From IMG/VR virus record IMGVR_UViG_3300033069_001491, positions 1 to 64,000 of that record: DNA of 64,000 bases; one strand, given 5' to 3'. The translations under genes and the position numbers were made by a program. Under the pieces are notes generated by a model. It worked only from the letters and a program-made list of their open reading frames with translations. It was not told where the DNA came from and did not search any database. Shown here piece by piece: positions 20,021 through 50,026 of the stretch. Origin of the DNA: a virus (Duplodnaviria > Caudoviricetes). Each line of letters opens with the position of its first letter. Positions within the stretch are counted from its first letter, which is position 1.

Positions 20021-23000
20021 TCGTCGTTCTCCTCCAGCGTCTCGACGGTGATGAAGTATTTATCAGTCACCAAGTCGCCTCGTGTCTGGTCACGTTCACG
20101 CAACTTAAAATTGTTGACATTGTGAAAGAACCGCCCTCGTGGCGGCCGCCGGCCCATGTCAACTGTTTCAGGCGTCAGGGCTTGTAGGTTCTTGGAGCGC
20201 TGAGTCATCGGGTCAACTGACACTACCTCACCGTGTCTGATTAGAAGCTCAAGAGCCTGTCGCCCGTATGGAGTTGCCAGCGTCTTCTTGACGTCGATCT
20301 CGAAGTCATTAGCATCAATGATGATGTTGAAGACGCGGTCGAACAACCTCGGCGACAGCACGCGCGCTCGTGTTGCCTCAGTACGGGTGTACTGGGTGAA
20401 GGAGCTAGCTAGTTGCGAGCAGGTGCGAAGCGTCGCCGCTGCTGCACGAGCGTGCTTGGGTCCCAGCAACTCCAAGTTCTCTTTGAGCGAACCTACGCTC
20501 GACTGCTGGTCCCTGTTCCTAACGGGGGCGCCTTGTTGCCGGGTCGAACCGAATTGGGCCTCACCCTGCATGTCACCTGCGGTACCCGCAGGGTTACTCA
20601 TCGCTGGTCGAGTCTGACCGCGGTCACCCCTCTTCGGTGGAGGATTAGCGGTGCGCGCCCCGGTCGATGAGAACAGCACTCCTCCTGTCGGCGGGGCGTC
20701 CTCCGAAGGGACAGCGACTCCCGACCTTGCAACCATGTTTGAGATTGCGTACGTGGCCAGTGAACCTACCAGTCCCCTGTCGCTCACTGAAGGCAGTTCA
20801 TCGACGTAATACGAGTGCTCAGCGACATTGATGCCCGTTAGCATCCGAACGTAAACCTCCAGCATGTGACTGAGGGTGTGATTGTGAAGGATCTGTGTTT
20901 TCTGTGCCGGTGTCAGGAACGAGTATGATTCACCATTGAAGGCAGAACGCAGGTGTTGGGCGCCCTGTTGACCTGCGATGGCGGCGGCCGCGTATTCGAC
21001 GTTGATCGTCACCTGCGTTCCGTCAAAGTTGAAATTTTGAGTCGGCACAGCATTGATGATGTCGGCGACGGTTGGCTTGTCGCGCAGGGGCAGCCAGTGG
21101 TCTGTCGAGAACCTGATCGGAAACCGCGACAGTTCAAACAAAAACCTGACAGGCTTGTAGATGATATCAGTGTTCTGCATGTCAACACGATAGACCACGA
21201 CCTGTACGATGTCCCCTTCCTTTTCCTGCTGGCTAGCGTTTTTCTTGTTCGGTTCACCCTGTTGCTTCAGGTACTGCGTGAAGCCATGTGGAATCCCCAC
21301 CGTCATGATTCTCTTGTTCAGGCCTTGTGCGGCAGCATAGTCACCTTCTGAAAAAAAGCTAAGGATGGCGTGTTCCATCTCCTCAGCTACGTCAGACTCG
21401 TCAAAGACAGCAAGGTCGTCCTCTACCGTGGGCAAAGAACCGCGCCGGCGAGTACGTGGTTTGGGTTCATCCTCATTGTTCTCACGTCGTCGAGACTTAA
21501 ATGCTGACGAGATGCTCAACAACGTAGACGACAACAGCATGATTTGCTGTTCGGTCAGCAACGAGCGCAAATCCCGAGTGCTGCCGCCCAAGCTGCCTAC
21601 AAGCTCTGTCAACTTGCTACGCGCGAGGTCGCTATTGAAGTAATTGCTAGTTTGGCTGGCCATACGCGAGGTCGCCATCAAAGCACTAGTGAAGGTGATG
21701 ATCAGCTGACGCACCAGGTCACCTTCCTTGTTGTGACGCTGAATGATGTCGTTGAATGATGACGCGTGGTTGGTCGTCGAACGTGACACTGCAAATGTCA
21801 ACTGTCCATGTGATGAACCCGACAACCCCCGGTAAACACCCACAATCTGTTGGCCGCTGTACCGGGCGACTACTGCGATGGCAAGATCAAATGCGATCAT
21901 CATGATGACGGTGTCAAGATAACCGCCATAACGGGTGTAACTGTCATTGATCGCTGTCGTGCGGTTTTTGAACCAGTTGATGACGGCGCTCATGAACTGC
22001 TCGACTAGGCGCGTCAGCACGGTCCCAGACTTGAAGGCATGTTTGATGCTGTCTGGCGTCAGAGACGTGGTGTTCAGTCCCCGATTGAGACCAGGTTGCG
22101 TCACCAATTGCACGGTTGACCTCGTCGTCGGCACTGTAGCCTCTAGCGAGGCTACCAACCGGTCGATAAGGTTGTCGACCAACGGGGTGTTGTCCTGTGA
22201 CTGGTTAGAATTCAGGAACTGAACGTTGTTCCCGTAAGCACGTGAGATCTTGCTCATCGTGTACATGAACAGAATCGTCTTAACCTTGTTGTCGGTCTTG
22301 GCCAACGCATAGACAGAACCCAGCTCATCGTTGGCAACGTTGTTCAGAACCTTACCATTGTTAGTGTCGATGAGCCGTGACGCTAGCTCAAATACTGTGT
22401 CACTGGGGTGCTTCAGGAAGCTGGCATTCGCATCGCGCGTTGACTCGCCTCGACGAACGTCGAACCTTGATGGAATCATCAGCAAATTGAGACCGTCGAC
22501 GATGATCAACAACTGGTTGAGCTGTTCTTCTGTAAGCTTCAGCAGCTCTTCGCACCCAGAAGTGTCGAAGCCCTTGGAGGTGGCATGCTCCATAATCTTG
22601 TCAAAGAAGTACTCGCCACCTGGCGCCAGCGTCCCAGTGCCTCCCTCGATCGGTCGAGGTTCGAACGTCAACACGCCAACGCTCGCAGAAGGAGTCACTT
22701 GTGCGACGCCGGCCATCGACCGGTCGTTTCCGGGTGACAGGTCGTCGATGTTGTTGCCGAATGAACCTAGCACCGACTCGAACAGAGTCGAGTTCCCGCG
22801 GTCGGCGACCTGATAACCGTACGACTTTTGCAAGGCCTGCTTGACAGCTGACAACGACAGGCCCACCGAGTACCGGTATTCACGGGAGATGATGTGCGAA
22901 AGGGCAGCGATACGTGCTTCATCGCTCTTGAAATACGCATTCTGATAGATGCTACCGAACGCCGACTGCAACGTATTGACAGTCTGCGGGATTGCCGCGA

Positions 23001-24171
23001 CCTGCAAGTTGATGAGTTCGGAGATGGGCGGCAGCTCGTGACCAATCGCCGCAATTCCGAAGTGTTTGACCTGAGGCCTCAAGATGTTTGACGGGCTGTT
23101 GTCGCGTCGCTGGTGTGTTGGGGCAATGTCGAGCAGCTGGAATGAGTGGTTCTCGAGGATCTGCCTCAACTCGAACAGGGTCTGCAACCAGATTTTCGAC
23201 GAACAGAAAACACTAACGTTTGCAGACGTATAGCCAAGGTCCTTCATGCAGTCACTGAAGTCAAAAGCGTGTCGGTTGCCCAATGACACCAGCATCTCGA
23301 CAAGATCGATGTGCGGGTTGACAGATGTTGAGAGCTGATGCTGACGGAAGTTCTTCGCGATGAATTGAGCGATGATGGTCGGATCTTTGACCTGGTACGC
23401 GCCGTGACGCAGGTCGAGACGCTTCTTGTTGTTCTCGATGACGCGAACGGCGTTCAATAGGAACATCGAGTCCTCACGCAGGCGTTGAACGTCGTTTCTA
23501 AACGTAGCCTCACGTTCGTCCAGGATGCGATCCAGGTGTGGGTAGCGTTGGCGGAGGACGCCCAACATGCGTGTCATCTGATCGGTCTGCAGGCTACGCA
23601 TCTGGAACTGTGTCTCCACGTACCTACCGGCGGCCGTCATTGATCGGTCGAACCCACTGCGAGCATTGCGCTCTGAATGTTCTGAGTGTACCTCACCCGA
23701 GCCCTTGTTGAACAACGGGTGAAAGTTGGTCAGCATGATGACCTCGGGACGCTCCTTCACGACACCAGTACGCAGCTCCAGATTGCTAAGCCGAGCCACC
23801 GTCCCCCTGGCATCAGAGTCCACGTCAGGTTGAAATGTTGGGCCAGAGTCGAGTGTCAGATTGTAGGTGGGTACGATCTGGTTAGTCTGTGACTCGAGAG
23901 GGAAGAGGAACGTCGGGTCTGTGACCATCATCTCAGCAATGTCATTGAGCGTCGTGTTCTGGATGTGGGTCACAGAACCCGACCCATGCAACATCACCGG
24001 GACAGGAATCGACGCATCGCCCACAGGAAGGGCACCACCCGAGTCACTATCCTGTGTGGAAGACGTTTGCTGAACAACCTGGTACTCTACGGAGTCAACG
24101 GGTGAAGGTTGGATCTGGATATTGCCCATGCCAGCGAAGCTTCCGTTGTTGGCGCGCAGTGATCGAATCAT
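20017..24171 (-). CDS. Large hypothetical protein (1384 aa), probably virion structural
   Basis: Long ORF with ATGA overlaps at both ends within the structural operon; no recognisable enzyme motif. Confidence 0.6.
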   Translation of the reverse strand: MIRSLRANNGSFAGMGNIQIQPSPVDSVEYQVVQQTSSTQDSDSGGALPVGDASIPVPVMLHGSGSVTHIQNTTLNDIAEMMVTDPTFLFPLESQTNQIVPTYNLTLDSGPTFQPDVDSDARGTVARLSNLELRTGVVKERPEVIMLTNFHPLFNKGSGEVHSEHSERNARSGFDRSMTAAGRYVETQFQMRSLQTDQMTRMLGVLRQRYPHLDRILDEREATFRNDVQRLREDSMFLLNAVRVIENNKKRLDLRHGAYQVKDPTIIAQFIAKNFRQHQLSTSVNPHIDLVEMLVSLGNRHAFDFSDCMKDLGYTSANVSVFCSSKIWLQTLFELRQILENHSFQLLDIAPTHQRRDNSPSNILRPQVKHFGIAAIGHELPPISELINLQVAAIPQTVNTLQSAFGSIYQNAYFKSDEARIAALSHIISREYRYSVGLSLSAVKQALQKSYGYQVADRGNSTLFESVLGSFGNNIDDLSPGNDRSMAGVAQVTPSASVGVLTFEPRPIEGGTGTLAPGGEYFFDKIMEHATSKGFDTSGCEELLKLTEEQLNQLLIIVDGLNLLMIPSRFDVRRGESTRDANASFLKHPSDTVFELASRLIDTNNGKVLNNVANDELGSVYALAKTDNKVKTILFMYTMSKISRAYGNNVQFLNSNQSQDNTPLVDNLIDRLVASLEATVPTTRSTVQLVTQPGLNRGLNTTSLTPDSIKHAFKSGTVLTRLVEQFMSAVINWFKNRTTAINDSYTRYGGYLDTVIMMIAFDLAIAVVARYSGQQIVGVYRGLSGSSHGQLTFAVSRSTTNHASSFNDIIQRHNKEGDLVRQLIITFTSALMATSRMASQTSNYFNSDLARSKLTELVGSLGGSTRDLRSLLTEQQIMLLSSTLLSISSAFKSRRRENNEDEPKPRTRRRGSLPTVEDDLAVFDESDVAEEMEHAILSFFSEGDYAAAQGLNKRIMTVGIPHGFTQYLKQQGEPNKKNASQQEKEGDIVQVVVYRVDMQNTDIIYKPVRFLFELSRFPIRFSTDHWLPLRDKPTVADIINAVPTQNFNFDGTQVTINVEYAAAAIAGQQGAQHLRSAFNGESYSFLTPAQKTQILHNHTLSHMLEVYVRMLTGINVAEHSYYVDELPSVSDRGLVGSLATYAISNMVARSGVAVPSEDAPPTGGVLFSSTGARTANPPPKRGDRGQTRPAMSNPAGTAGDMQGEAQFGSTRQQGAPVRNRDQQSSVGSLKENLELLGPKHARAAAATLRTCSQLASSFTQYTRTEATRARVLSPRLFDRVFNIIIDANDFEIDVKKTLATPYGRQALELLIRHGEVVSVDPMTQRSKNLQALTPETVDMGRRPPRGRFFHNVNNFKLRERDQTRGDLVTDKYFITVETLEENDE

Positions 24172-26642
24172 CGTGCCTCTACAATCAGTGAGTTTGTCAC
24201 GCCTTCGGGACCCAGCTTGTAATCGTTATAGATCGGCATGATGACATATTGGATGACGCCCACGTCATGACGCCGTAAGCAGTGGATGTACTGGCAGCTA
24301 CCATTTGGGAAAGACGTGTGTGCCTTGCCCAAGACAGTCCGAATCCCATGGACCTGCTTCATGATGAGAAAGTGGTCGATCTGATCAATGTCACCCAAGA
24401 TACCCCAGGTGATCAGGTTGGTGAATCTGTCGAACGTCGAGGCCGTCGGATCAAGCACTTTCGCAGTGTCAGTGTCAAACGACACCTCGGTTGTCACGAT
24501 CGATCCAATCACGCCATACGACATCGGATCCTTCGCATGACGCATGCGGGCACCCGAGGTCGACACCATGACACCACGGCGCAGGGTGAACGGATGACGA
24601 AACTTGGCTGGCTTATAGGCGTACGACTTCTTCGTCACCACGTCTGTGGCGGTCTTCACAAAGTCGTCGAACAACGTTTCAGGGGCCCTCAGAAGCGGAT
24701 AGACCTCATACCGATACCGATGTCCATACTCCAGTTGCTTCACTGCTTGCTTTTTTCTGAGGGCACCATCGTCAAACTGAGTGGCTGTCAGGATGCCGAA
24801 GTCCTCGCGCCGGCCGGTCGTCAGGTCAACCCGTTGCACATTGTGAGCGATCAGGCTCTCTAGTTGATCTCGTTGGTTCTCAATGTCACCAGTGAAGTAA
24901 CCCGCCAGGCCTTGCTTTTCAAGCATCTGCTTGATGAGGTCAAGGTCGCTGGCCACCGTCCTCGTGGTGATATTGAACGTGACGTTGGGAGCCTCGTCGT
25001 GGCTGACCAACAGATCCTCAACTCGCGTGTCGACCTGCCCAGGTGCAGGACGCAAGAAGTCAACGATGGCATCACCGCATTCAGCTGTCAACCCATCACG
25101 GTAGATCAACCTAACGCGGTACCGGTAGACGTTATCAGGTGAGATGGTCGTGTCAATCGTCGTCAGCAGGTCTGCCTGCCTGATAGAATCATCGATGAAA
25201 CCCACGTCCGTGCCAACTGACGTTGGGACCGTCTCATGGTTTGTTGTGTTCCACCTCAGGAACTGCACGGCGACAACATTGGTGGGGATCCTACGAATAT
25301 CCAATCGTGCTCCCGTGTCAACCTGCATCGCGGTCAAAGACACTGACTTCACCGGCTTGTAGCGCATGGGTCGCACTGCCACGTTAGTGTACTCAAATCC
25401 CTGAATTGACTGTTGTCCAACAGTGACGACGCGGTACAATGCCGGTGAAGAGTGTGGCATGTCGACCTGTACTAGCAGCGACTGGTCACGTGATGACAAC
25501 AGATAGGTGCCGATGAGCGTGTAGCTGTCAACCTCAGTCGACGAGATCCAAAACGACTTCTTGTAGATGTGGACCTCAGTCGCCCCCTTGTCGACCTGCT
25601 TGATCTCGAGGTTGACCCGTCCCGACTGCCCCGACGGGGCAAACCTGACTTTGGGTGGGACTTTGGGCGTATTGAAGATGCGTAGGTGACGTGCCACGTC
25701 CAACACCTTGGTCACCGTGTCAATGGGTAGATTAGACGCGCTATCGATCAATTCAAATGTGACGTACAGTTGGGTGACGGGCGAACCTTCTGACCACCGG
25801 CGTTGGGCCGGGATCACAATCGGCAAGGTGATCGTCACCTCGTCACTGCTCACCGACTGAATGACCTGTACCAGATCATTATCGACAATTTCGTCAGTTG
25901 TGGTTGGAATTGACCCGTGGACCGGCGGAAAGAGGTAGTGATTGAGCAATCGGGATGAAGGATCCGTTGACCTCTCTTCGGCCCGCTTAGTATTCGACAG
26001 GCCTCCTCTCGTTGTCACCTCGGAAGACGCACGCGGCGTCAGGTTCAACACGTGGGTAGGATCCAAGCCTTGACGCGTGATCATGTCATGAATCAGGGCT
26101 TGAGGAGAGACGCCTGCAGACGACGTCATGGCCTGTTGCAGGTCGGGAACAAGCGCGCTAAAGGCGACCCTGTGTAACACAGGTTGTGGATTGTTTCCCT
26201 GCTTAATGCTGCCCGCGCTAGCGAGCACCAACCTGGATTTTGTCAAGCTTGGGATTCGTGTGATCGGGACCTGCGACCTGAGCTGCGGAATGATCTCATT
26301 GTTAATTCCGACAGTGATGTCACTGTCTCGCTGAGCGACGACATGCTTCAGCTGTTGTTCTGCAGCGGTCTTCGCATCAATCATCGTCGAACGCAAATTA
26401 TTGATGAGCGCACGAACGTCGACGCGACCGCGCTGTGTCTGGCCCATCGTGTGCTTCTTAGAGATTGAACGCGACTCGACAGTCACCCTCACCAACGTGG
26501 ACGCACGTTGGACGACCTTGCTCTGCGAGACAGAGTAGGCAAACTGGAATCCAAGGCTGCCGTCGTCATGGACCGAAGCGAGGTGAGCGAAATCGTCTTC
26601 CACCTGCAAAATCTGTGCCTGTCGATCGATCCGAAAATACAT
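24168..26642 (-). CDS. Putative virion structural protein with FN3/Ig-like segments (824 aa)
   Basis: ALYRVVTV, NVYRYRVRLIY and HRYRYEVYPL motifs; operon context. Confidence 0.6.
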   Translation of the reverse strand: MYFRIDRQAQILQVEDDFAHLASVHDDGSLGFQFAYSVSQSKVVQRASTLVRVTVESRSISKKHTMGQTQRGRVDVRALINNLRSTMIDAKTAAEQQLKHVVAQRDSDITVGINNEIIPQLRSQVPITRIPSLTKSRLVLASAGSIKQGNNPQPVLHRVAFSALVPDLQQAMTSSAGVSPQALIHDMITRQGLDPTHVLNLTPRASSEVTTRGGLSNTKRAEERSTDPSSRLLNHYLFPPVHGSIPTTTDEIVDNDLVQVIQSVSSDEVTITLPIVIPAQRRWSEGSPVTQLYVTFELIDSASNLPIDTVTKVLDVARHLRIFNTPKVPPKVRFAPSGQSGRVNLEIKQVDKGATEVHIYKKSFWISSTEVDSYTLIGTYLLSSRDQSLLVQVDMPHSSPALYRVVTVGQQSIQGFEYTNVAVRPMRYKPVKSVSLTAMQVDTGARLDIRRIPTNVVAVQFLRWNTTNHETVPTSVGTDVGFIDDSIRQADLLTTIDTTISPDNVYRYRVRLIYRDGLTAECGDAIVDFLRPAPGQVDTRVEDLLVSHDEAPNVTFNITTRTVASDLDLIKQMLEKQGLAGYFTGDIENQRDQLESLIAHNVQRVDLTTGRREDFGILTATQFDDGALRKKQAVKQLEYGHRYRYEVYPLLRAPETLFDDFVKTATDVVTKKSYAYKPAKFRHPFTLRRGVMVSTSGARMRHAKDPMSYGVIGSIVTTEVSFDTDTAKVLDPTASTFDRFTNLITWGILGDIDQIDHFLIMKQVHGIRTVLGKAHTSFPNGSCQYIHCLRRHDVGVIQYVIMPIYNDYKLGPEGVTNSLIVEAR

Positions 26643-26648
26643 GCCGCC

Positions 26649-27671
26649 TCACTCAAAGACTAGCGTGAACAGGTGAATAAACGTGTCAGTTCCTTTTTCG
26701 TCCACCTCGACCTTACCGACGAAAAAGATGTGTGCAGTGGGTGATGCAGGGTTTCCAGTATTGTGAATGCCATAGTCAATGACGTCGAGCTTTCTCAACG
26801 TGTTCCCTGAACGTTCGAAGAACTGTCCGACTAGCTTGTTGTTGGCTGATGTCGGGTCAAAATTGATGGTGCTCGAGTAACCTTGCATCTGGAAGTGTCG
26901 CAGCTCGAACATGATCTGATCGTACTTGAGGCGAATGATCTGTACCCTTCCCAACGACGGGAAGTGTGCCAAATAGAGGTGCTTCAGGGTCCTGTGATCA
27001 GTGCGAGATGCACGTTGACTAGCGAGGGTACCCTCGCTGTTCTTGTTGACAGGAGGAAGGTACTTGAAGTTCTGCTTGTGGCTGAGGCGCGGGTCAGTGT
27101 TCAGGCTGTCGTGCGAGGTGATGTGTGTCGTGTGCTCACTGGTGCCTGCAAGTGGGCGATCATCATGAATGACGTACGTAATGTCACGTGAGCCGATCGC
27201 AAACTTGTCGTCATCAAACACCTTGTCATGTGTTGCGAGCAGGTACAACCGTTTGAAGTTGTCGGCAGAGGAGGCCAGCAACGCCTCAGACTGGCTAGAA
27301 AAGTTGACACCTCTAAGCAGGGAAACGTTCTGAGATGGGACACTTCCCCTGTTCTGCGTCATCGGAGTAAACGCATATGACATGATACGGCCGTTGGCCG
27401 TGCTAATTCCAGCAGCGTTCTTGAACGACAACAGACTACCGTCTTCGTCGGCCTGAAAGGTGATCTCATCCTGTGGCAACTGACACGCTTCCAAGTAGAT
27501 GCGTTGTGTAGCGTCCTGGCTGCCACTCAACACGTCGGGGCTGTAAAACGTTGTCCCATCCGTGAACGTCACGTGTTGGATGTCGATGCCGCCACGTGCG
27601 AGTTGTCGCCGACCTTCTGCTGTGATCACGGTGTCGATGACGCGTGTCTTGTTGTCGAGGATGCCTGACAT
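26649..27671 (-). CDS. Virion structural protein, paralog of 16931..17647
   Basis: MSGILDNKTRVIDTVITAEGRRQLARGGIDIQHVTFTDG N-terminus. Confidence 0.65.
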   Translation of the reverse strand: MSGILDNKTRVIDTVITAEGRRQLARGGIDIQHVTFTDGTTFYSPDVLSGSQDATQRIYLEACQLPQDEITFQADEDGSLLSFKNAAGISTANGRIMSYAFTPMTQNRGSVPSQNVSLLRGVNFSSQSEALLASSADNFKRLYLLATHDKVFDDDKFAIGSRDITYVIHDDRPLAGTSEHTTHITSHDSLNTDPRLSHKQNFKYLPPVNKNSEGTLASQRASRTDHRTLKHLYLAHFPSLGRVQIIRLKYDQIMFELRHFQMQGYSSTINFDPTSANNKLVGQFFERSGNTLRKLDVIDYGIHNTGNPASPTAHIFFVGKVEVDEKGTDTFIHLFTLVFE

Positions 27672-27710: not shown

Positions 27711-28145
27711 TCAGCCGCGGCGGACGCGGATGGAACGCGGCTGCATACGTTGCGAAGAGTACGATTTCCGGAAGCGGGTGACATCCCTGACTGGCAGTGG
27801 CGCTTCCGCAGGTGTTTCAGGGATCGGAAATGGATCCCAAGCCCCCGGCCCGATGCCTTGATCAACGTTAGGTGAACCCGGACCGGTGACTGTGAAGCGA
27901 TCGTGGTTTTCGTTCACGGTCGTTGTCACGCCCCACGAGTAAGCATTACCCTGCCACGAACCCGTGGAAGTGGACAAAGATGAGGTGACCACGTTGCCTC
28001 CCCACGTGTTAGCGAGACCGCTCCACGAACCTGTCATCGTTGACGGAACGGTGACATTAGCTGTAGCGCCCGCCGTGTTAGCGTAGGGATACCACGAACC
28101 AGTGTAGAATGAAGTCGCTGACGAAATTTCAATGATGTTGCCCAT
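27711..28145 (-). CDS. Ser/Thr/Gly-rich hypothetical protein sharing a C-terminal motif with 33884..35470
   Basis: Ends DVTRFRKSYSSQRMQPRSIRVRRG; starts 6 nt after the 28152 stop. Confidence 0.65.
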   Translation of the reverse strand: MGNIIEISSATSFYTGSWYPYANTAGATANVTVPSTMTGSWSGLANTWGGNVVTSSLSTSTGSWQGNAYSWGVTTTVNENHDRFTVTGPGSPNVDQGIGPGAWDPFPIPETPAEAPLPVRDVTRFRKSYSSQRMQPRSIRVRRG

Positions 28146-28151
28146 ATCGCC

Positions 28152-29759
28152 TCACGACAAGGAACCAATGCCTCCCCACGGCAGGTAGAACCCATTGGTG
28201 GTGTGGAGCCACTGTTGAGAAGTGTCGGCCGTCGACCATCGCGACTGACCGGTCGATCTGCCAAATCGAGCAATCGGGAACCTGCCCATCGGCCTGGGTT
28301 CCATCTGAAAGATGGAAGGATTGCCAGCGGCACGGAGATTGTCCCATGCACCTGCCACCAGCTCAGAATCGATCAACTCTGTCGCTCCCAAAAAAGGCGT
28401 GTCAGCGGCAACCGCATCATACCTGATGCTACCCGAATCGTTGCTCTGATCAGAAACGTAGCTGTAGGAGCTGATCGTACACGCCAAAGGACCAAACCTT
28501 GAATCGGTGCAGAAGCTCAACCCCGTGATCCCATCTGCCGAGTGGGTGCCGTTGGCCCAAGTAAGCCCGACGTTTGTCCGTGACTGACCGACAACAAAGA
28601 GGCGCGATGCTGCAGACTGTCCTGGATACAGGACCTCAGCTTCTGGTTGACCAAAAGCCAAAAAAGCATCACACGATCCAGAGGACGTAGTGCCACGTAC
28701 GGCAACTAGACACGTGCCTGTCGAGTCATCGCCCCAGGCGTAGAACCGATATCCAAGCTTTGTACCTGGTGCTAAAGGAGTACTGCCCGTAGTCGCGGCC
28801 ACGGCTGCATCAAGTCCAGGTAGACACCCAACGTAGTCTGATGCTGACGTAAATGGCACGTTGAGCCACTGCAGCGCATGCAGGTGTTGTGAGCCGGGCA
28901 TGCCCATAGTACCAGTCAGAAAATCTCCCATCGATCCACTGAAACCCGGGAATGCCGTCAAGGCGGGACCGCCAGCACTGAGCACGTTGCCGAACCTGAC
29001 GTCTGTCGTCGACTCCACACAAAGGCGTAGCTGCCATCCCAACGTGCCGGGCGACATCAACAACAACCGGGGGACCGTAGCTGAACCTTGGCCTTGGTAG
29101 CCCGAGGTGTTACCGTTACCTGCCATCGCTGCAAAAGCGGCCCAAGCTGCGCCTGTTCGATTCTGCCCACGGTTGGATGCAGTACTGATGTCAGAACTGG
29201 GCGGAGGCAACCACACAGACGCCGACAAGTAGCTACTTGTCTCCAACAACGTAGCAGACGATGTCCGGTAATCGATCTCAACAGCATTACCACTGAGCCA
29301 GTTGGTCGAATCGATGACAGCAAAGATGCCAGAGTTGGCCAACGGATACGCCTCGCTTCGCAATGCGATCCAATCACTTAACAACGGATCACCCTGGGGC
29401 CATGGTCCAGAACCGGAAGGCCAGCCGATCGGGTATGCCGCCTTCTGCAGATCGAAAGCGTCGGTTGAAAACTTCAATAGTGTGTGATCGCCTGAGGCGC
29501 TGACAAGACATGACGGGTTCTGAATGCTGACAAACGACGAACTAACCTGCGTCAGTGAGAATGGTGAAATGGAGGCACTGTAGTAGGCCACCGAAAAGTC
29601 AGCGTACCCGGGTGGTTGTGGCGCGCCAGCTGACGACAAGGTGACGTACCCAAGGACACCTTGCAAGAAAGCCGTAAGGGCCCACATCGAATCGGTCGCG
29701 CCCGAAGCCCAACACTTGGTCCCACCGACCACCAAGTCCCGACAGACGTGAATAGTCAT
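28152..29759 (-). CDS. Cassette protein A, copy 3 (putative virion surface/fibre protein)
   Basis: MTIHVCRD.., NSGIF.V, IDYR, WQLRLCVE, WLHTTNGFYLPWGG; TAATG overlap with 29759..31201. Confidence 0.75.
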   Translation of the reverse strand: MTIHVCRDLVVGGTKCWASGATDSMWALTAFLQGVLGYVTLSSAGAPQPPGYADFSVAYYSASISPFSLTQVSSSFVSIQNPSCLVSASGDHTLLKFSTDAFDLQKAAYPIGWPSGSGPWPQGDPLLSDWIALRSEAYPLANSGIFAVIDSTNWLSGNAVEIDYRTSSATLLETSSYLSASVWLPPPSSDISTASNRGQNRTGAAWAAFAAMAGNGNTSGYQGQGSATVPRLLLMSPGTLGWQLRLCVESTTDVRFGNVLSAGGPALTAFPGFSGSMGDFLTGTMGMPGSQHLHALQWLNVPFTSASDYVGCLPGLDAAVAATTGSTPLAPGTKLGYRFYAWGDDSTGTCLVAVRGTTSSGSCDAFLAFGQPEAEVLYPGQSAASRLFVVGQSRTNVGLTWANGTHSADGITGLSFCTDSRFGPLACTISSYSYVSDQSNDSGSIRYDAVAADTPFLGATELIDSELVAGAWDNLRAAGNPSIFQMEPRPMGRFPIARFGRSTGQSRWSTADTSQQWLHTTNGFYLPWGGIGSLS

Positions 29760-31201
29760 TAGAAGCTCCTGAAAAGTGGGCGGTTAGCGACGTAGGCGTG
29801 GTCCCAAGGCCACATGACGCCTCCGCCAGCGTGGATCCAACGATCAGCACCATCGCCAACCCGGATGCAAAGCGGGTACGTACCAGCCGTAAACCGCACG
29901 CTGCGCAGCCTAGCTCGAGCTAGGCTGAACTGTCCGGCGGCCGATGCCTGACCCGGGACAGACGACATCCCCAAGACCGCTTCAGCCGTCACGAACTTAC
30001 CAAGGCGCGGGTTCTGAAAGAGACTCCAACGAGACGTCACACCGCGTCCCAATGTGGCACCAGACGATGGTGAATTTGATAGGAACGTGGTGCCATTCCA
30101 ACCCGAACCAGTGATCGATCTGACTAGACACGGCCACCTTCGCAGAGTGGCGTCATGTGGACTCGGGAAGAAGCGGTGAGCGGCACCGTACCCTACATTC
30201 GAGATCAATGAGGCCTGTGTGGAACCCACGTTAATAGCGCAGATCGGATTCGGGTCATTGGCCTGAGGGTACAACCGGGTCGGCACCTCAATGTGGAAGA
30301 ACGAACCCTTAGATCCAGGAGAACCACCGTCATAGAGCCACGGACCGCCCACCTGACACATCAAGAATCCGGTACCACCAATCAGAGTGATGAAGCCCGG
30401 CCCTGTAGCACTGCCATGGAACCAATCAGCGCTCACCCAGCCGCCGTACGATGGACCAAGGTTCAATTCAGGAGTGATCTCACTGTAGCTCTCACTAATA
30501 AAATGCGTCCCATCCCACGAACCTGAAGGTGACAGCTGGATGCGAGGCTCCGAAAAAGTGCTTAGACCTTCGTACGTGACGATCTTGGCCTGTGAATTTG
30601 CTTGCCCGACATTAACTTGTGATGCATCGTTAAACTGCAGGACAAAGTACTGGCCAGATGCGTACGGCAGGCCAGAAGCAGAATAGTAATCGATGACTCG
30701 GTAGTTAACACCGCTACGTGTTGTCAACGAAGGAACGGACCCCGAGGTTGAGCCTGCATCGACGGTGCCTCCCACCTGTGGATCGATGATGATTGATGAT
30801 GAATTGATCCATCCAACAATCGGATAAATGCTGTCGTCTGTCGACGTAGACCCAGATTGCCATAACGTCAACCACTTTCCAACGTACGAAGCGCTAAAGG
30901 GAGACGATCCCGTGACAATGAAATAAGGCATGCCAGCCGCTGTCGACCCATCGCTGCCTGATGCCAGCAACACGTTGCTGCCCGACTCAAAGTCTGTCGG
31001 CATGCTGATGTAGCTACCTGTCAACTGTGATGTTGCCATCCACCCAGGAACACGTAGGTCGTTGGTACCGTGCAGACAGAAGCCCCAGAACTCATAGAGC
31101 AGACGCAGGATCCAACCCATGCTGCCCGCGGGCGCGTTTTGCGCGACAGGAGGCACCACATGCGCACGAACGAACTTAGCATTGAGGGGAGGAGCAGCCA
31201 T
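29759..31201 (-). CDS. Cassette protein B, copy 3
   Basis: AKFVRAH, LYEFWGFC, ASGSDG, STDDSIY, FHIEVPTRLYPQ..DPNP, ARARLRSVRF, WIHAGGGVMWPW. Confidence 0.75.
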   Translation of the reverse strand: MAAPPLNAKFVRAHVVPPVAQNAPAGSMGWILRLLYEFWGFCLHGTNDLRVPGWMATSQLTGSYISMPTDFESGSNVLLASGSDGSTAAGMPYFIVTGSSPFSASYVGKWLTLWQSGSTSTDDSIYPIVGWINSSSIIIDPQVGGTVDAGSTSGSVPSLTTRSGVNYRVIDYYSASGLPYASGQYFVLQFNDASQVNVGQANSQAKIVTYEGLSTFSEPRIQLSPSGSWDGTHFISESYSEITPELNLGPSYGGWVSADWFHGSATGPGFITLIGGTGFLMCQVGGPWLYDGGSPGSKGSFFHIEVPTRLYPQANDPNPICAINVGSTQASLISNVGYGAAHRFFPSPHDATLRRWPCLVRSITGSGWNGTTFLSNSPSSGATLGRGVTSRWSLFQNPRLGKFVTAEAVLGMSSVPGQASAAGQFSLARARLRSVRFTAGTYPLCIRVGDGADRWIHAGGGVMWPWDHAYVANRPLFRSF

Positions 31202-31210
31202 TCGACGACC

Positions 31211-32560
31211 TCAGGGCAAAATGGTGCCCTGCCAGGGCAGGTAGACGCCATCGTTAAGATGAAGCCACAGTTGCTGTCCCGCTGTAGCGATCTGGAAGTA
31301 CCCATAGTTGGACCTTCCTAGACGAACCATGGGTGCTTGTCCCAATCGCCGTCCCTCAAGTTGCAACACCATTGCATTGGGACCAGCGGCGTTCGCGGCG
31401 TTGAGGATAGTGCCGGCGAGCAGGTCGACGGGGACCAATTCAGTTGCCGACAAATACGGGCAGTCGCCTGCCGTGGTCTGCGAACGTGCGGAAACGTTTG
31501 AGTAGGCGTTGGCAACCAACCTGTTGTAGAGGCTGTAGGTGCAACTGATAGGTTGGTTGCAGAAACCATACGACATGCCACCGCGACCGCTGGCAGCTGA
31601 TGTTCCGGAAGAAGCTCCCGTCGACCAACCGATCCCAGTAGTGGTCGACGGGATGTTTGCTCCCATTACGAAGAGCCGTTGCACAGTCTTGGGCGGCAGC
31701 GGCTGCTCTTCGTTCTCCGGAAGACCAAAATGAACCATGCCGTCGGCACCACCGATCACAGCACGGGTCGCCATGTAGACGGAACCCGTATTATCGTCAC
31801 CCCAGATGTAGACACGCACCTGAGTTCCACCCGCGGGTTCGATGCCAATCGAGGTGCCATAGTAGGTTGAGTCATGGACGTTAAAGTATAACGGTCCATG
31901 CAAGTGTTGTCCCGCCACCGCAAAATCGCCTGCCGCGTTGCCTGCCACACCCGGTGCAATTGTTGCGACTTGCGGCGTGGTACCCGCACCCAAGTCATAG
32001 CTGTTCTCAAAGCAGATCCTCACCTGCCAAGCCAGAACTGATGGGCTCTGTAGGATGATCCGACTCTGCGTTGCCGAACCTTGACCTTGGTAAGTGCTCA
32101 GGGTTCCATTGCCACTGAAATTGAGCAAGCCGTTGAAGACCGTCTCAGATGCATACAAGGCCCAAGTCAGCCCTGACTCTACGGGCGGGAAATCACCCGA
32201 TCTGTAATTGACAAAGAGCCAGTTGTTGCCAGTGTCAATTCCTGTCACTCGAAACAAGCCCGAGTTAACCATCGGATTGTTAACGCTGCGAATTGCCAGG
32301 ATGCGCCCAATGTCAGAGCCTGACACGACGTAGCCATTGGGTGAGAAGGCATACTCATTTGTTGAGCCTTGGTTGATGCTGCCTGCCGCGCCCGAACCAA
32401 CCTTCAAAGTAACACTATCAATGTTGAAGTTAGTCTGGCCAACTACCGCGTAGCCCAGGACGGTCCGAAGGAAGATGGCCAGGTAATACTGGGCCAGCCT
32501 GGAACAGTTGAGGTTGATCGGATTTCCGATCGATAGAAAATCGCGGCAAACGTGAAGCAT
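31211..32560 (-). CDS. Cassette protein A, copy 2
   Basis: MLHVCRD.., RILAIRSV.NP.VNSGLFRVTG, WQVRICFE, WLHLNDGVYLPWQG; TGATG overlap with 32560..33846. Confidence 0.75.
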   Translation of the reverse strand: MLHVCRDFLSIGNPINLNCSRLAQYYLAIFLRTVLGYAVVGQTNFNIDSVTLKVGSGAAGSINQGSTNEYAFSPNGYVVSGSDIGRILAIRSVNNPMVNSGLFRVTGIDTGNNWLFVNYRSGDFPPVESGLTWALYASETVFNGLLNFSGNGTLSTYQGQGSATQSRIILQSPSVLAWQVRICFENSYDLGAGTTPQVATIAPGVAGNAAGDFAVAGQHLHGPLYFNVHDSTYYGTSIGIEPAGGTQVRVYIWGDDNTGSVYMATRAVIGGADGMVHFGLPENEEQPLPPKTVQRLFVMGANIPSTTTGIGWSTGASSGTSAASGRGGMSYGFCNQPISCTYSLYNRLVANAYSNVSARSQTTAGDCPYLSATELVPVDLLAGTILNAANAAGPNAMVLQLEGRRLGQAPMVRLGRSNYGYFQIATAGQQLWLHLNDGVYLPWQGTILP

Positions 32561-33846
32561 CAGTTGCCCCCGAGGAAGAGGTTGTAGGGTAGGATCGAGT
32601 TATCCCAAGGCCACATCACGCCATTGACGACGTGCAGCCATTCGCCGCTGTTACCGACCCGCTCGAACTGCGGGACAATGGGAGGCAACACCCTGACACG
32701 ACGCAATCGAACGCGTGCGAGCTGATACTGGCTTTGGATCATCGGGTTCTGCAACACCACGTCCGACATCAGGAACTTATTCTGATAAGTGTTGTAGTAG
32801 GCACCGTTGACCGGACCGTTAGTCGCATTCGCCATCGTATTGATGTCGATGCCGTCAAACCGCCGGGCCGCACCAAAGTACTGCATCGTAGTGTTGTCGG
32901 GCGGGTTGTGCATGTAGAAGCCACCACCGTAGTGGTTCGACGCATCAAGCAAAGACGGGACGACGGCCGCGTATACCATCGCAGCCACTGGATTGGGATC
33001 CGTCCCCTGTGGATACAACCGTTGAGGTACTTCGACGTGGAAACCAGAGCTCTGTCCAGTCGTTGAGGCCTTATAGTGCGTAATGATGAAGTCACCCGCA
33101 GCGAAGACGCTGACGTAGGCCGGGCTGTCGTTGGCGGTGAACCAACCACCCGGTTGCAATTCTGTTGCTGGGTCGGAGAAGCCATAGCTGCCACTGTAAA
33201 GTCCCCATGAACCCGAGGGCGACAGAGTGATGCCCACTGCCAAGCTGGGAGACATCACTCTACGAAGCCGAACGTGTGGGCTGGGTTGGTTGGGATTGAC
33301 GAGGCCAGCGTCACACAGTTGCAGGACCAGCGAGCTCGTCGTTGCATAGGTCAGGCCAGCAGGGGCCTGAAAGTCGACCAGACGCCAATTGATGCTGCTG
33401 CGTGTCGTGAAGGATGGGTGCAGCGAACCGGAGTACGGGGTACCACCTTGCAGTACGTTGACTCGAATGGATGACGAGTTGATCCACTGCGTGATTTGGT
33501 AAACACTGTCATCCGTAGATGAGGATCCTGACTTCCAGATAACCAAGTGCTTGTTGACATACGACGAACTGAAGGCCGTAGTGCTCAAAGAACCGAAGAA
33601 AGGCATGCCATCTGTCGTGAAGCCATCACTGCCAGACGCTAGGGTTCCCGTAGTCGCAAATGAGGTCGGCATGCCAAAAACGCCAGACGCAGGAGCGAAG
33701 GAAGCAGAACCGGGCGTCACCAGGTCTGTGTCACCATTGACACAGAAGCCCCAGAACTCGTAGAGCAGCCTAAAGAACCACGCAAATCCCTGGCCCGACG
33801 ACATCGTCGGGATGGAATGGGCTCGGATGAACTTCGCGGTCAACAT
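32560..33846 (-). CDS. Cassette protein B, copy 2
   Basis: AKFIRAH, LYEFWGFCVNG, STDDSVY, FHVEVPQRLYPQ..DPNP, ARVRLRRVR, WLHVVNGVMWPW. Confidence 0.75.
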   Translation of the reverse strand: MLTAKFIRAHSIPTMSSGQGFAWFFRLLYEFWGFCVNGDTDLVTPGSASFAPASGVFGMPTSFATTGTLASGSDGFTTDGMPFFGSLSTTAFSSSYVNKHLVIWKSGSSSTDDSVYQITQWINSSSIRVNVLQGGTPYSGSLHPSFTTRSSINWRLVDFQAPAGLTYATTSSLVLQLCDAGLVNPNQPSPHVRLRRVMSPSLAVGITLSPSGSWGLYSGSYGFSDPATELQPGGWFTANDSPAYVSVFAAGDFIITHYKASTTGQSSGFHVEVPQRLYPQGTDPNPVAAMVYAAVVPSLLDASNHYGGGFYMHNPPDNTTMQYFGAARRFDGIDINTMANATNGPVNGAYYNTYQNKFLMSDVVLQNPMIQSQYQLARVRLRRVRVLPPIVPQFERVGNSGEWLHVVNGVMWPWDNSILPYNLFLGGN

Positions 33847-33883
33847 TGAACTGCTCCTATAGTATCATCGTTAGAACACGATG

Positions 33884-35470
33884 CTAACCACCTTTGACAA
33901 CCCGGGTATTGACGGGTACCTGGCGGTAGTAAGAGTACGTCTTGCGGTATCGGGTCGCATCGATCAGATCGACCCTAGGTGACATCTCAGGAAGAACTGG
34001 GTCGCTGCCCGGAGAAGACGCCGCGTGCGTGGCCAACCCTTCCTGCAACAGCGTGGAACCTGACGTCACCTGTGCTGCCAACACGTTAGCGCCGGCCGGA
34101 GTGGGCCCGCCCCACGACAGGTAAACACCGTCGATAGTGTGGTAGTGGTCGCCGTAAATAGACCACTGGGACGCATTGGCACGGCCCTGCAACAGCATCG
34201 GCAACCTGCCCAAGCGGGCAGGTTGCAGCGGAAAGATCGCAGCGGCAGACGCAGACACTGTCTGGTCGACGGTGCCGATCAGGACTTCTACGTCAAAGAG
34301 CTCTGTCGTGCCAGTCCAGGCAGAAGCTACTGACGATGTCAAATAACGCACGTGCGACCTGTCAGGATTCGAGATGTCACTGTAACAGCTTAGGACACCT
34401 GGGACTGGGTACCCACGCCGGCCGAAGCCTACCACTTGGATGTTGTTGTCAGCGTGAAACTGACTGGTCCATGTCAGACTGGACGCACGGTTGCTAGACC
34501 CGGCCACGAACAAACGCCTGACGTTGAGCGACGGATCACTCAAGTTATTGGGGGAAGGAACGGCTCGGTCATCTTCGCACAGGCCAAAGGCTGCCCAACC
34601 TGAACCACTGGTCGCCGTAGCAGGCAGTGACACATTTCGATTGACGACGACGCATGATCCGGTCAGATCATCGACCATCATTGAGATACGCCAAGAGCCC
34701 GTGGACTCCAAGGCGGGCGATAGGCCAACGACCATTCCACGGTATTGTGGATCAGACGAATTGTAGAACAACGCAGTGTGAAGATGAAGCTTTTGCCCAC
34801 CCCAGGAGGACCGATCAGGCGGCACCTCAAAAAAGTCGCCATTGCCATTGCCACCGAACCCAGGCGCAATCGAGAAGCCTGACGGGCAACAACCTGAAAC
34901 GTCGTGGTTAGACTCCAGGCACATCCTGACCTGCCAACTGGAAGGATCAGGAGACCTAAGGATGACTCGGCTCGCGTTTGACACCACGTCAGGGGCCGGC
35001 GAGAAGGAACCGTACCCAGTCGTGGCATTGGACCCAGAGCGCCACGACCAGGACGCTGTCACTTCATCGACATAAAGTCGCCAGGATAGGTTTGACTCTG
35101 CGATGCTGCCCGTTGTCGACCGATAGTCAACGGTGAGCGTGTTGTTGATAGCGGCGTAACCGGTCACCCTGAACAGGCCAGAGTTGAAGAGTGGGTTTGC
35201 CACTGATCGCAAGGCCAAGATCCGATTGAGATCAGCCGCAGACACTACATGTGATGCAGTGGGCAACTGAACCAACACGGGCGATGTGCCAACAATAGAG
35301 GCATCGGCCCCGCCGGCAACCTGAAGGCTGCCCGACTGTACGTCAAAGTTGGTCTGGCCCACGAATGAGTACCCTCCGCAGCCCACCAGAAAAATCGTGA
35401 GTGCGTACATATTGGTACCAGGGCAGCTCGCTGAGCTAATTGTCAGGAAGTCACGAGTCAGATGTCTCAT
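33884..35470 (-). CDS. Cassette protein A, copy 1, with a C-terminal extension
   Basis: Probable start is ATG 35470 (MRHLTRDFL; ATGA overlap). Contains RILALRSV.NP.FNSGLFRVTG, WQVRMCLE, YHTIDGVYLSWGG and the tail DATRYRKTYSYYRQVP..RVVKGG. Confidence 0.75.
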   Translation of the reverse strand: MRHLTRDFLTISSASCPGTNMYALTIFLVGCGGYSFVGQTNFDVQSGSLQVAGGADASIVGTSPVLVQLPTASHVVSAADLNRILALRSVANPLFNSGLFRVTGYAAINNTLTVDYRSTTGSIAESNLSWRLYVDEVTASWSWRSGSNATTGYGSFSPAPDVVSNASRVILRSPDPSSWQVRMCLESNHDVSGCCPSGFSIAPGFGGNGNGDFFEVPPDRSSWGGQKLHLHTALFYNSSDPQYRGMVVGLSPALESTGSWRISMMVDDLTGSCVVVNRNVSLPATATSGSGWAAFGLCEDDRAVPSPNNLSDPSLNVRRLFVAGSSNRASSLTWTSQFHADNNIQVVGFGRRGYPVPGVLSCYSDISNPDRSHVRYLTSSVASAWTGTTELFDVEVLIGTVDQTVSASAAAIFPLQPARLGRLPMLLQGRANASQWSIYGDHYHTIDGVYLSWGGPTPAGANVLAAQVTSGSTLLQEGLATHAASSPGSDPVLPEMSPRVDLIDATRYRKTYSYYRQVPVNTRVVKGG

Positions 35471-36840
35471 ACTCCGAACCTCCAGGGCCCCTGCGGCAAG
35501 ATTGATCCGTCCCAAGGCCACAGGACGCCATTCGACACGTGAACCCACCCTGGCGTATCGCCCAGTCGAGTGCCTACTCTCATGTCAGCAGTGGTGAACC
35601 GAACCCTTCTTAGCCTCGCGCGACCCGCGCTGAACTGAGACGCCAATGACAGACTGAGGATTCCGTCAGTCGTCAAGTACTCCATGTTCTCGATGTCAAG
35701 GTTGATCGTCGCGAAACGGAATGCCGGCAGAGCGAACTGTTGCCATTGACCTGTGCCGTATGCGTTTCCCGTGTAGTCAGAACGTACGTGAGTGCCCATC
35801 GGCGATCTGACAAGCGTGGTCCACTGTCTGACCACATTCGCGCGATCCAACATGGAAAAGCCGTTGTAATAGGTGCTGGCAACTTGATTGGGTGTTGCGT
35901 TCTGCCAGACGAGCCAAGCGACCGGATTCGGATCAAGTGCTTGCTGGTACAGCCTCTGTGGCACCTCCACATGAAATCCTGATCCTGACGTGAAGGTGCC
36001 TTGTGGGCCGGGCGTGTGTCCTCGTACCTCAGCAATCAGAAAGTCGCCAGCTCCGATCAGGGTGTAAGCAGCACGACCAGTCGTCGCCCCTGATCCATTG
36101 AACCAAGTGTTGATCACTTCGGTTGCTGCATCTGTGAACAGTTGGGTGCTTGCGTTCCACGAGCCGCTAGGCGACACCTGAATCCCAATGTTTCCCTCCA
36201 ACCCGACGCTAGGTCCTACTGTCTGGGTGTGATGTGTCACCTTGACTTGCGTCACCAACTGACCAGGATTAACGGTAGGCGCCGCGGGAAGGTTAAGCAC
36301 CATGTATTTGCCTTCGCCCCACCCAGACAACTGGGTGGCTGCCGCAACATCGACTAGGCGCCAGTTGATCCCATGCCTGTCCCAGAAACACGGGTGGTTG
36401 CCCAACCTTCGTGTCCCTCCACTGTGTACATCTACCTGTAAGTGTGTGGCATCCAAGACGGCGGTAACGCGATAGATGCTGTCGTCAGTAGAGTCACCAC
36501 CTGGCACCCACGTCACCAGGTACTTGTCGATCAGAGAGCCACTATTGACACTGGTGAAATTGACGCTGCTGGCCTGGAAGATGTCAGTACCAAAGCTAGT
36601 AGAACCGTCCGCCCCTCGGGCCAACAACACGGTACTGCCTGACTGAAAGCCGGGTGGAAACGATAGGTCAGCGATCCCACCCGGCTGCGTCAGGCTCGAG
36701 CCTCCGTTAACGCAGAACCCCCAGAACTCGTAGATCAATTTGCTAACAAATCGAACTGCCGTCGTCGGTGTCAGGCTGTTCGACCCTGTCGACGACAGGG
36801 ACTTGACGTACTTGACTGGGATCTGTTGGGCAGTCGGCAT
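35467..36840 (-). CDS. Cassette protein B, copy 1
   Basis: VKYVKS, IYEFWGFCVNG, STDDSIY, FHVEVPQRLYQQ..DPNP, GRARLRRVRF, WVHVSNGVLWPW. Confidence 0.75.
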   Translation of the reverse strand: MPTAQQIPVKYVKSLSSTGSNSLTPTTAVRFVSKLIYEFWGFCVNGGSSLTQPGGIADLSFPPGFQSGSTVLLARGADGSTSFGTDIFQASSVNFTSVNSGSLIDKYLVTWVPGGDSTDDSIYRVTAVLDATHLQVDVHSGGTRRLGNHPCFWDRHGINWRLVDVAAATQLSGWGEGKYMVLNLPAAPTVNPGQLVTQVKVTHHTQTVGPSVGLEGNIGIQVSPSGSWNASTQLFTDAATEVINTWFNGSGATTGRAAYTLIGAGDFLIAEVRGHTPGPQGTFTSGSGFHVEVPQRLYQQALDPNPVAWLVWQNATPNQVASTYYNGFSMLDRANVVRQWTTLVRSPMGTHVRSDYTGNAYGTGQWQQFALPAFRFATINLDIENMEYLTTDGILSLSLASQFSAGRARLRRVRFTTADMRVGTRLGDTPGWVHVSNGVLWPWDGSILPQGPWRFGV

Positions 36841-47425: not shown

Positions 47426-47434
47426 GATGATCAC

Positions 47435-47695
47435 ATGTTGACCCAAGAAGGTGAGTTGGCCCAAAACGCCACCTATCGTACGCTCATCTGGAACTTTCTG
47501 CGTTGGAAGCCAGGCAGCGATGGTAAGACAGCGACCGAGCTATTCCGCTGGATGCAGAGTTGTGGTTGGACGGTGAGAATGAGTAGCCTGTCGAGCCAAC
47601 TCACTCGGATGGTGAAGTCAAAGGAACTCACCGTCCTCGCTGAGAGAAAAGGCCCACGGGGTGGCAATGTTTACATCTTGGGAAAGGATGGATGA
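47435..47695 (+). CDS. Small winged-helix-like DNA-binding protein
   Basis: TATELF...SSLSSQLTRMVK..GPRGGNVY; TAGGAT-6 nt-ATG. Confidence 0.55.
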   Translation: MLTQEGELAQNATYRTLIWNFLRWKPGSDGKTATELFRWMQSCGWTVRMSSLSSQLTRMVKSKELTVLAERKGPRGGNVYILGKDG

Positions 47696-48420
47696 TGAGA
47701 CACGTCGGCATCAAGCAGAAACTCGAGGAGATGGGAGTCTCCACTGACTCGATCGTCATGGGAGACTTCGATTTCATCGGTGAGTTTACGGCAAAGCGTG
47801 ACCGCCATCCGAACGACCCCAACTACAAACGCTTCGGAGCCTTCTATCGTTCCAACTACGAACGAGGCATCCTGATCTACTACCTGATTCGACAGCACAA
47901 CTTGTCGTCAATGCTAGAGATTGGGTTTGGACGAGGGTACGCTACATTCTGTGCCGCTCGAGCGTTCCATGACGCTGGGATCGCCGGCAAGATCCTGACG
48001 ATCGATCCTGCCCTCGACGAGAACTACCTACAGGCTCTATCAAAGGTCTTTCCGCAGGACTGGTTCAAGTACGTCCAGTTCGGCAAGGCCACATCACAAC
48101 AGGCCCTGCCCACGCTGCTCGAGCGCTATGACCTGGTCTATATCGATGGTGATCACTCCTATACCGGTACCAAGCACGACTGGGAACACACCAAGGACAA
48201 ATGGGACAAGTTCCTGTTGTTCGACGACTACCACATGCCCACCAAGGGCGACCCGGGCATTCAGTGCAGTCAGTTGATCGATGAGGTCGATGACCCCTCG
48301 AAGGAGCTGATCATCATGGACCGCCGGTTGTTCTTCGATGACCGCCTGTTGCCCGATGACAAGGTTGACTATGGACAAGTCTTGTTGTCCAAGTCCGGAG
48401 CAACCCGTGATGACTGGTGA
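47692..48420 (+). CDS. Class I SAM-dependent methyltransferase (Methyltransf_24-like, possibly sugar O-methylation)
   Basis: LEIGFGRGYAT motif I, YDLVYIDGDHSY, LLFDDY. Confidence 0.8.
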   Translation: MMRHVGIKQKLEEMGVSTDSIVMGDFDFIGEFTAKRDRHPNDPNYKRFGAFYRSNYERGILIYYLIRQHNLSSMLEIGFGRGYATFCAARAFHDAGIAGKILTIDPALDENYLQALSKVFPQDWFKYVQFGKATSQQALPTLLERYDLVYIDGDHSYTGTKHDWEHTKDKWDKFLLFDDYHMPTKGDPGIQCSQLIDEVDDPSKELIIMDRRLFFDDRLLPDDKVDYGQVLLSKSGATRDDW

Positions 48421-49183: not shown

Positions 49184-49193
49184 GCACCCTGAA

Positions 49194-49721: not shown

Positions 49722-50026
49722 GACGTTTCTACCTGCAACGAAACCAGGACGCATCCGGCGTATCTGGTCTGGGGAGGGTGGCCGAAGGCTGCCAGTTTGA
49801 CAACGGTTGGTGTGCGCTAGTATGGTTGACGAGCGCAGATCCAGACGATGAGGTGCATGCCTTCTATCACAGCGTCCAACGTGTCGAGGAGATTCATGGC
49901 CATGGTGGCATGACCAGCGTCGTTTGGATTGACGACGAATCGTCCAACGTCATCATCAAGAAGGACTCGACGCCCGGCGTACCGACGTGCAAGAACTGCT
50001 GGGATCCGGAGCAGTGGGCCAAGTGA
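49718..50026 (+). CDS. Hypothetical phage protein
   Basis: RRFYLQRNQDASGVSGLGRVAEGCQF..IHGHGG; ATGA overlap. Confidence 0.7.
   Translation: MRRFYLQRNQDASGVSGLGRVAEGCQFDNGWCALVWLTSADPDDEVHAFYHSVQRVEEIHGHGGMTSVVWIDDESSNVIIKKDSTPGVPTCKNCWDPEQWAK

Follow-up and report, generated by a model that had tools for sequence, protein, structure and literature searches.

Three coupled gene pairs of uncultured giant phages encode proteins predicted to fold like the JBD30 arm fibre

The fibres of Pseudomonas phage JBD30 consist of three arms, each made of three gp47-gp48 heterodimers whose partners have similar folds and together form a bent arm (PMC11445458; Valentova et al. 2024; PDB 8RK3). Both are anchored on proteins of the distal tail and the upper baseplate, and they clasp the type IV pilus, to which the fibres bind (PMC11445458). 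Pseudomonas phage Lydia (Mesyanzhinovviridae) is predicted to have JBD30-like two-protein fibres made of gp67 and gp68, again with three heterodimers proposed per fibre (PMC11946847), and in chimalliviruses the DUF7941 paralogs (PhiKZ gp126-gp127, Goslar gp22/gp23) form head-to-tail filaments at the periphery of the baseplate (bioRxiv 10.64898/2026.04.21.720040). Most giant phages from metagenomes lack annotation, and very little is known of the machinery by which they recognise hosts. Here we describe a cassette of six genes, arranged as three B-A pairs, in a 64,000-nucleotide (nt) stretch of uncultured phage DNA (the window; positions 1 to 64,000 of IMG/VR record IMGVR_UViG_3300033069_001491). 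On balance we consider it moderately probable that one JBD30-like arm, carried on the baseplate of a giant phage whose tail is probably contractile, would have each of its three positions occupied by a different B-A heterodimer. The analysis links the cassette to the sole solved example of a two-protein arm fibre, and proposes for six conserved orphan genes, and for a third related family (C), a structural role that can be tested; these genes recur in uncultured phages (contigs of 23-480 kb).

The six genes lie on the minus strand in the order B1-A1-B2-A2-B3-A3. The first pair comprises B1 (35467..36840; 457 amino acids, aa) and A1 (33884..35470; 528 aa), the start of which is best placed at the ATG at 35470 rather than in a longer open reading frame (ORF) beginning with GTG; the second comprises B2 (32560..33846; 428 aa) and A2 (31211..32560; 449 aa); and the third comprises B3 (29759..31201; 480 aa) and A3 (28152..29759; 535 aa). 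In every pair the stop codon of B overlaps the start codon of A (ATGA in B1/A1, TGATG in B2/A2 and TAATG in B3/A3), whereas A1 and B2 are separated by 37 nt and A2 and B3 by 9 nt. The same pattern is kept across 14 related cassettes, in which 24 of 34 B-to-A junctions have gaps of ≤3 nt and A-to-B gaps are never <6 nt. By BLASTP the B proteins share 33-37% identity (E 1e-56 to 4e-83), with B1 at 33-36% to B2 and B3, and the A proteins share 30-35% identity (E 2e-31 to 1e-61). Between A and B only a C-terminal motif aligns (E about 1e-3), this being the W/Y-x-H...W motif present in all six proteins, as YxH...SW in A1. The six genes are two families of three paralogs each. Glycine, serine and threonine make up 28-32.5% of the six proteins and charged residues 10-13%, a composition that differs from that of the neighbouring proteins and is typical of fibre proteins.

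The original prediction, made from the letters of the window, had given the six genes with their coordinates, order, paralogy and composition, and was correct in every detail checked; its observations that the B-A but not the A-B junctions are coupled, that all six proteins end in a related motif, and that no recombinase or reverse transcriptase adjoins the cassette were likewise borne out. It had not recognised the family. Nor did our searches: a Pfam scan of the six proteins at E up to 1 returned sub-threshold noise only, and a PHROG scan at E up to 0.1 gave zero matches for all six.

To compare structures, we modelled A2 and B2 with AlphaFold2, supplied with the family alignments, and compared the models with 48,161 representative PDB chains. 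Both models scored highly (A2: predicted local distance difference test score, pLDDT, 88.1 and predicted template modelling score, pTM, 0.93; B2: pLDDT 91.4 and pTM 0.92), and in both a short N-terminal strand and then a long helix precede the beta-rich domains. The best match of each was JBD30 gp47 (8rk3_c), with a Z-score of 16.8 for A2 and 17.4 for B2, in both cases with a root-mean-square deviation (rmsd) of 4.1 Å and 258/317 residues aligned. The next-best PDB entries reached Z-scores of 7.4 and 7.8 through one common beta-barrel domain only, and all others were below 8. Foldseek, which the original prediction had named as a check, likewise matched the two models to 8rk3 chains G and K, with a probability of 0.85-0.99 overall and 0.98-0.99 for the A2 model. 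The 8rk3 chains were assigned by length, with the 317-residue chains taken as gp47 and the 305-residue chain (G) as gp48. Endosialidases also appeared in the top rows of the Foldseek output; as whole-chain matches these were spurious (TM 0.15, rmsd about 20), and the shared beta-barrel domain alone aligns, at a Z-score of 6-7.

Among predicted viral structures in BFVD, the fold was matched by an uncharacterised protein of Acidovorax phage ACP17, by a 'virion structural protein' of each of Burkholderia phage KL1 and Achromobacter phage AchV4, and, in large myoviruses, by Bacillus phage G gp371 and one protein of Agrobacterium phage Atu_ph07. Three further BFVD matches (A7KUT2, A7KUT3 and A7KUT4) were considered as curly-fibre genes of Bacillus phage 0305phi8-36; the accessions could not be mapped and the gene lengths did not fit, and we make no claim for them. 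From the models we propose that the fold family of JBD30 gp47 and gp48 includes A and B as two ancient branches. Because both families are predicted to fold like gp47 and gp48, which act as heterodimers, a role at the virion surface in contact with the host is the best reading. The original prediction had also considered whether the proteins might map to a well-characterised family, and here the answer is divided: in predicted fold they correspond to a fibre protein that has been characterised structurally, but none of the six belongs to its family by sequence.

Profile comparison and the shared predicted fold both support the predicted common ancestry of A and B. Compared directly, the A and B profiles matched over their N-terminal 140 residues with a probability of 93%. 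They are connected by family C (about 425 aa; P0163-P0169), which in hhalign comparisons matched both A (97.7%, E 2e-12, 356 columns) and B (97.0%, E 1e-10). On the one contig examined, the family-C gene lies directly upstream of a gene whose product, of at least 804 aa, has a Tail_P2_I baseplate domain that exceeds the Pfam cut-off (23.4 versus 20.6 bits). Two scans of viral contigs for family C found nothing, and the metagenome scan yielded one 3.9-kb contig; the Tail_P2_I protein of L017 has no relative within the window.

Profile searches widened both families. The A profile matched 52 proteins, all unnamed and on metagenomic contigs of up to 357 kb, and the B profile matched 105 proteins among 1.84 billion representatives of any length. 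Some relatives of B carry insertions of up to about 880 aa, rich in Thr/Gly/Ser repeats, at two loop positions, a pattern expected for outward-facing parts. We also considered B-A fusion proteins as possible support for pairing. Long B proteins were found (950 and 1328 aa), and those inspected (580-1328 aa) were B proteins with internal insertions rather than fusions; A fusions of >937 aa were not searched for.

In the close relatives the gene order is helicase, PhoH, B1-A1-B2-A2-B3-A3, a 144-aa ORF, and then proteins of 340, 824, 1384 and 650 aa. Orthologs at each position share 50-63% identity (53-63% for B1 in L004, L006 and L010), similar to the neighbouring proteins of no known family (about 50-55%). 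In trees rooted on family C, A1, A2 and A3 form separate clades, as do B1, B2 and B3, so the triplication predates these phages; the copies are old orthologs and not recent amplifications. The 12 distinct complete cassettes (contigs of 23-480 kb) hold three A genes in 12/12 cases and three B genes in 9/12, with the order B-A-B-A-B-A in seven distinct relatives, B-A-A-B-B-A in two, and three A with two B genes in three. In the two cassettes with the order B-A-A-B-B-A (L008 and L009), the A at position 3 and the B at position 4, which make up the second pair, each group as sister to the pair-1 clade of their own tree (Shimodaira-Hasegawa-like approximate likelihood ratio test support of 94 for A and 97 for B), which argues that A and B were duplicated, or retained, together.

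The number three recurs in deeper lineages (contigs of 36-480 kb), where a further ORF of 190 aa stands inside the cassette. The order is B-A-B-A-(190-aa ORF)-B-A in L027, L028/L029 and L033, and B-A-(190-aa ORF)-A-B-A in L031, L032/L034 and L035. This conserved ORF (for example L027:9422-9991, L031:12763-13335 and L035:12741-13259; about 190 aa) has a C-terminus ending ...IVGRWIQ and, in the cassettes with three A and two B genes, occupies the would-be position of a B gene; it matched nothing in Pfam and does not clearly resemble the 144-aa ORF. In distant lineages the cassette comes immediately after two or three Laminin_G_3 (ConA-like lectin) proteins in tandem (L032:4610-7246, L027:1-2482). 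A protein of 875 aa in the window (10875-13502, minus strand) gave a weak Laminin_G_3 match of its own (E 0.012).

These comparisons bear directly on why a phage would keep three pairs. The original prediction had proposed virion-surface modules amplified for the recognition of multiple receptors. The surface and host-contact part of that proposal agrees with the JBD30-like folds, whereas the part that concerned amplification and alternative units does not agree with old orthologs in fixed number. Copy number across relatives argues against amplification for multiple receptors in particular: three, which is also the number of heterodimers per JBD30 arm, recurs in deep lineages, and the full-length B representatives divide almost evenly by type (B1:B2:B3 = 22:22:24). 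A version in which each B-A heterodimer is an independent adhesin, with three kept for three receptors or hosts, would not be fully exclusive of an arm. It draws on the pilus binding of the fold relatives, on the large variable insertions in surface loops, and on the lectin-like genes that adjoin the cassette in distant lineages. Yet each position has its own conserved ortholog, about as diverged as the neighbouring genes, the A genes are fixed at three in all complete cassettes and the B types are balanced, and no mosaic or recently duplicated copies were seen in the cassettes compared. We regard three independent adhesins as unlikely, though deserving of some weight. Subunits specialised by position fit better than interchangeable receptor modules, because of the old orthologs at each position, the recurring three and the even representation of the B types.

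The arrangement that we favour, three different heterodimers in one arm, could be assembled as follows. Each B would combine with its translationally coupled A into a 1:1 heterodimer, as suggested by the JBD30 precedent, the coupling and the co-duplication. B1A1, B2A2 and B3A3 would then join end to end to give a bent-arm side fibre with a dedicated pair at each position, where JBD30 uses the same gp47-gp48 heterodimer three times per arm. The arm would presumably attach at the periphery of the baseplate, and the Gly/Ser/Thr-rich surface and insertion-accepting loops would contact the host surface.

Candidate pieces for docking or joining, more speculatively, are the C-terminal tail of A1 and the 144-aa protein. 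The tail, of about 75 aa, is absent from A2 and A3 and is conserved in the family consensus. The 144-aa ORF (27711..28145, minus strand) directly follows the last A gene in all close relatives (after A3 in L004, L005, L006, L008, L009, L010 and L012), and BLASTP aligns its C-terminus with the A1 tail (E 8e-6, 34% identity over 82 aa). In the window A3 ends in TGA and the 144-aa ORF begins two codons on in the same frame (27711-28154, minus strand). We considered programmed UGA read-through from A3 into this ORF, and rejected it: the two are in frame in only 2/7 relatives, about the chance rate, one relative uses TAG, and the arrangement is not conserved. The 144-aa ORF looks like a separate gene and not a conserved read-through extension. 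A fuller evolutionary scenario, which we put forward tentatively, is that the fibre of JBD30-type siphophages, with one heterodimer used three times, became six position-specific genes in a clade of phages of 200-480 kb, in which end-specific connectors would be supplied by the A1 tail and the 144-aa protein.

The phage itself appears to be large. The window comes from a 73-kb record with a CheckV completeness of 20%, from which we estimate a phage of roughly 350 kb. Its large terminase is of the T4 type, and the best cultured matches (about 43% identity) are from Microcystis phage Mel-JY01 and the Flavobacterium 'immuto' phages. In a related record, G001 (340 kb, 99% complete), we found sheath-like (292.9 kb), gp25-like (59.4 kb) and Baseplate_J-like (61.1 kb) matches, all weak and below the Pfam cut-offs; because of these matches, a contractile tail is likely.

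Several observations weigh against the arm that we propose. By sequence there is no link to JBD30, as hhalign comparison of the A and B profiles with gp47 and gp48 gave probabilities of <1%, and there is no PHROG match either. A cultured relative was not found among 50,697 phage records, searched by megablast with the cassette and by tblastn with B3. JBD30 is a siphophage with a threefold baseplate, and its attachment site cannot be transferred directly to the phage described here. The surroundings are not informative: in G001 the cassette lies at about 9-18 kb, ~40 kb from the gp25-like and Baseplate_J-like genes (themselves recognised by matches below cut-off), and in the window the proteins of 340, 824, 1384 and 650 aa encoded downstream have no Pfam, PHROG or PDB sequence match, save a weak 'tail protein' PHROG match at E 0.005 for the 824-aa protein; a relaxed PHROG scan added nothing. 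Three cassettes hold two B genes only. Finally, L005 (IMGVR_UViG_3300047160_010523, 200-7387) has two A2-type genes, at positions 1 and 3, before B3-A3 and is cut at the contig end, so that its first pair may have been replaced or the cassette may hold four pairs.

The position of the G001 cassette, away from recognisable baseplate genes, would also suit use of the fold elsewhere in the virion, as neck or collar whiskers or as decoration of the tail sheath or capsid. Equally, 'three' suits threefold symmetry as well as it suits three positions, so that the products might form a ring of three A-B pairs, or hetero-trimers of A1A2A3 and B1B2B3; the tandem paralogs gp371-373 of phage G hint at trimer-like sets of this kind. 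The sole solved relative is nonetheless a heterodimer arm attached to the baseplate, a family-C member adjoins the Tail_P2_I baseplate gene, and the coupling of B to A together with the co-duplication of A and B favours A-B pairs over A-A-A sets. We judge this group of arrangements to be rather improbable.

That A or B, or both, might be virion-borne hydrolases that degrade the cell envelope was prompted by the JBD30 authors, who classed gp47 in the nitrilase superfamily (PMC11445458), and by the strongly conserved acidic and polar motifs of B, STDDS and FH(V/I)E(V/I)P.RLY.Q..DPNP. Against this, a Pfam search at E up to 1 matched A, B and JBD30 gp47 to neither nitrilases nor any other enzyme family, no enzyme fold exceeded a Z-score of 8, and the alignment of 56 B sequences has no nearly invariant Cys, a residue of the Glu-Lys-Cys catalytic triad of nitrilases; we consider an enzymatic role very improbable. 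The structural matches listed include no nitrilase chain, which is not decisive on its own. A non-virion function, as intracellular assembly or host-takeover factors that share an old beta-rich fold, is hardly to be expected: the strand-long block does also hold helicase, PhoH, primase and SbcCD genes, but it is a virion protein that the models match over the full length of the fold, the annotation of other fold relatives is that of virion structural proteins, the composition is fibre-like, and the loop insertions are rich in repeats.

Around the cassette in the window, a PhoH-like/PIN protein is encoded upstream and the proteins of no recognised family downstream. The latter four genes (18068..27671, minus strand) are syntenic in relatives and lie outside the A and B families; in a protein-atlas search the 824-aa protein had FN3/Ig_J-like leads below 0.9 only, and the 1384-aa protein had none. 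The minus-strand block also contains three endonuclease-like ORFs with PHROG matches of the HNH/homing type (5131-6051, 10004-10834 and 14472-15377), one of which interrupts the SbcCD region. On the plus strand, genes of the glycosyltransferase, nucleotide-sugar epimerase/dehydratase, aminotransferase and UDP-glucose dehydrogenase types stand in a row (45422-61724), and a nicotinamide phosphoribosyltransferase is encoded next (62470-63915). This run of sugar genes and the [ST]GS sites in the putative fibre proteins (2-8 each) raise the question of virion glycosylation.

If each of the three pairs does have its own fixed position, the cassette illustrates how gene duplication can diversify a repeated assembly, and the insertion-tolerant loops become candidate sites of host specificity. 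The evolutionary scenario given above, if true, would give a clear example in nature of how an ordered hetero-assembly can arise from a repeated homo-assembly, and the first placement of this arm-type fibre on a giant contractile-tailed phage. Other metagenomic phages can be annotated for this putative fibre with the A, B and C profiles.

Compared with the systems described to date, the cassette most resembles JBD30 gp47/gp48. The overall fold of the A2 and B2 models is common to gp47 over about 258/317 residues, including the N-terminal strand followed by a long helix. Two proteins of similar fold come from adjacent genes in both cases (JBD30 gp47, 318 aa, and gp48, 307 aa, are encoded 1 nt apart), with the stops and starts of B and A overlapping here. 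Both systems are also organised in threes, as three heterodimers per arm in JBD30 and three gene pairs in the cassette. The differences are that A and B are 110-220 aa longer, that there are six distinct genes instead of two, and that sequence similarity is not detectable; gp47 and gp48 themselves match phrog_687, annotated 'structural protein' (1e-101 and 5e-97). The phage here, of ~350 kb and with a terminase of the T4 type, is probably a myovirus; by contrast, the family recognisable from the gp47 sequence comprises 411 phage records, of 37-86 kb among those listed and mostly with Pseudomonadota hosts. Furthermore, the cassette genes do not lie between the tape-measure and distal-tail genes.

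Lydia gp67/gp68, which we liken to the cassette through the published description, is again a pair of proteins of similar fold, with the differences that it is a single pair in a siphophage and that its JBD30 link was recognised by structure prediction. Bacillus phage G, a giant myovirus, has three tandem paralogs, gp371-gp372-gp373 (L018:29965-32568), with 30-36% identity, and the predicted structure of gp371 matches the B model with a Foldseek probability of 1.00 (TM 0.54 on the target). This suggests that tandem expansion of the fold in giant phages is not unique to the clade described here, although phage G has three genes of one ~285-aa family where the cassette has two families of three; we found no paper on gp371-gp373. 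The DUF7941 paralogs of chimalliviruses offer a functional parallel, as giant-phage paralogs that pair or chain at the outer baseplate; DUF7941 did not match in the Pfam scan of A and B at E up to 1, and the two are different sequence families. Within the literature searched, we found no paper describing the six-gene form. The two-protein arm fibre is already known from JBD30; what is new is a six-gene form, not recognisable by sequence, in giant phages, together with the likely position-specific use of three heterodimers.

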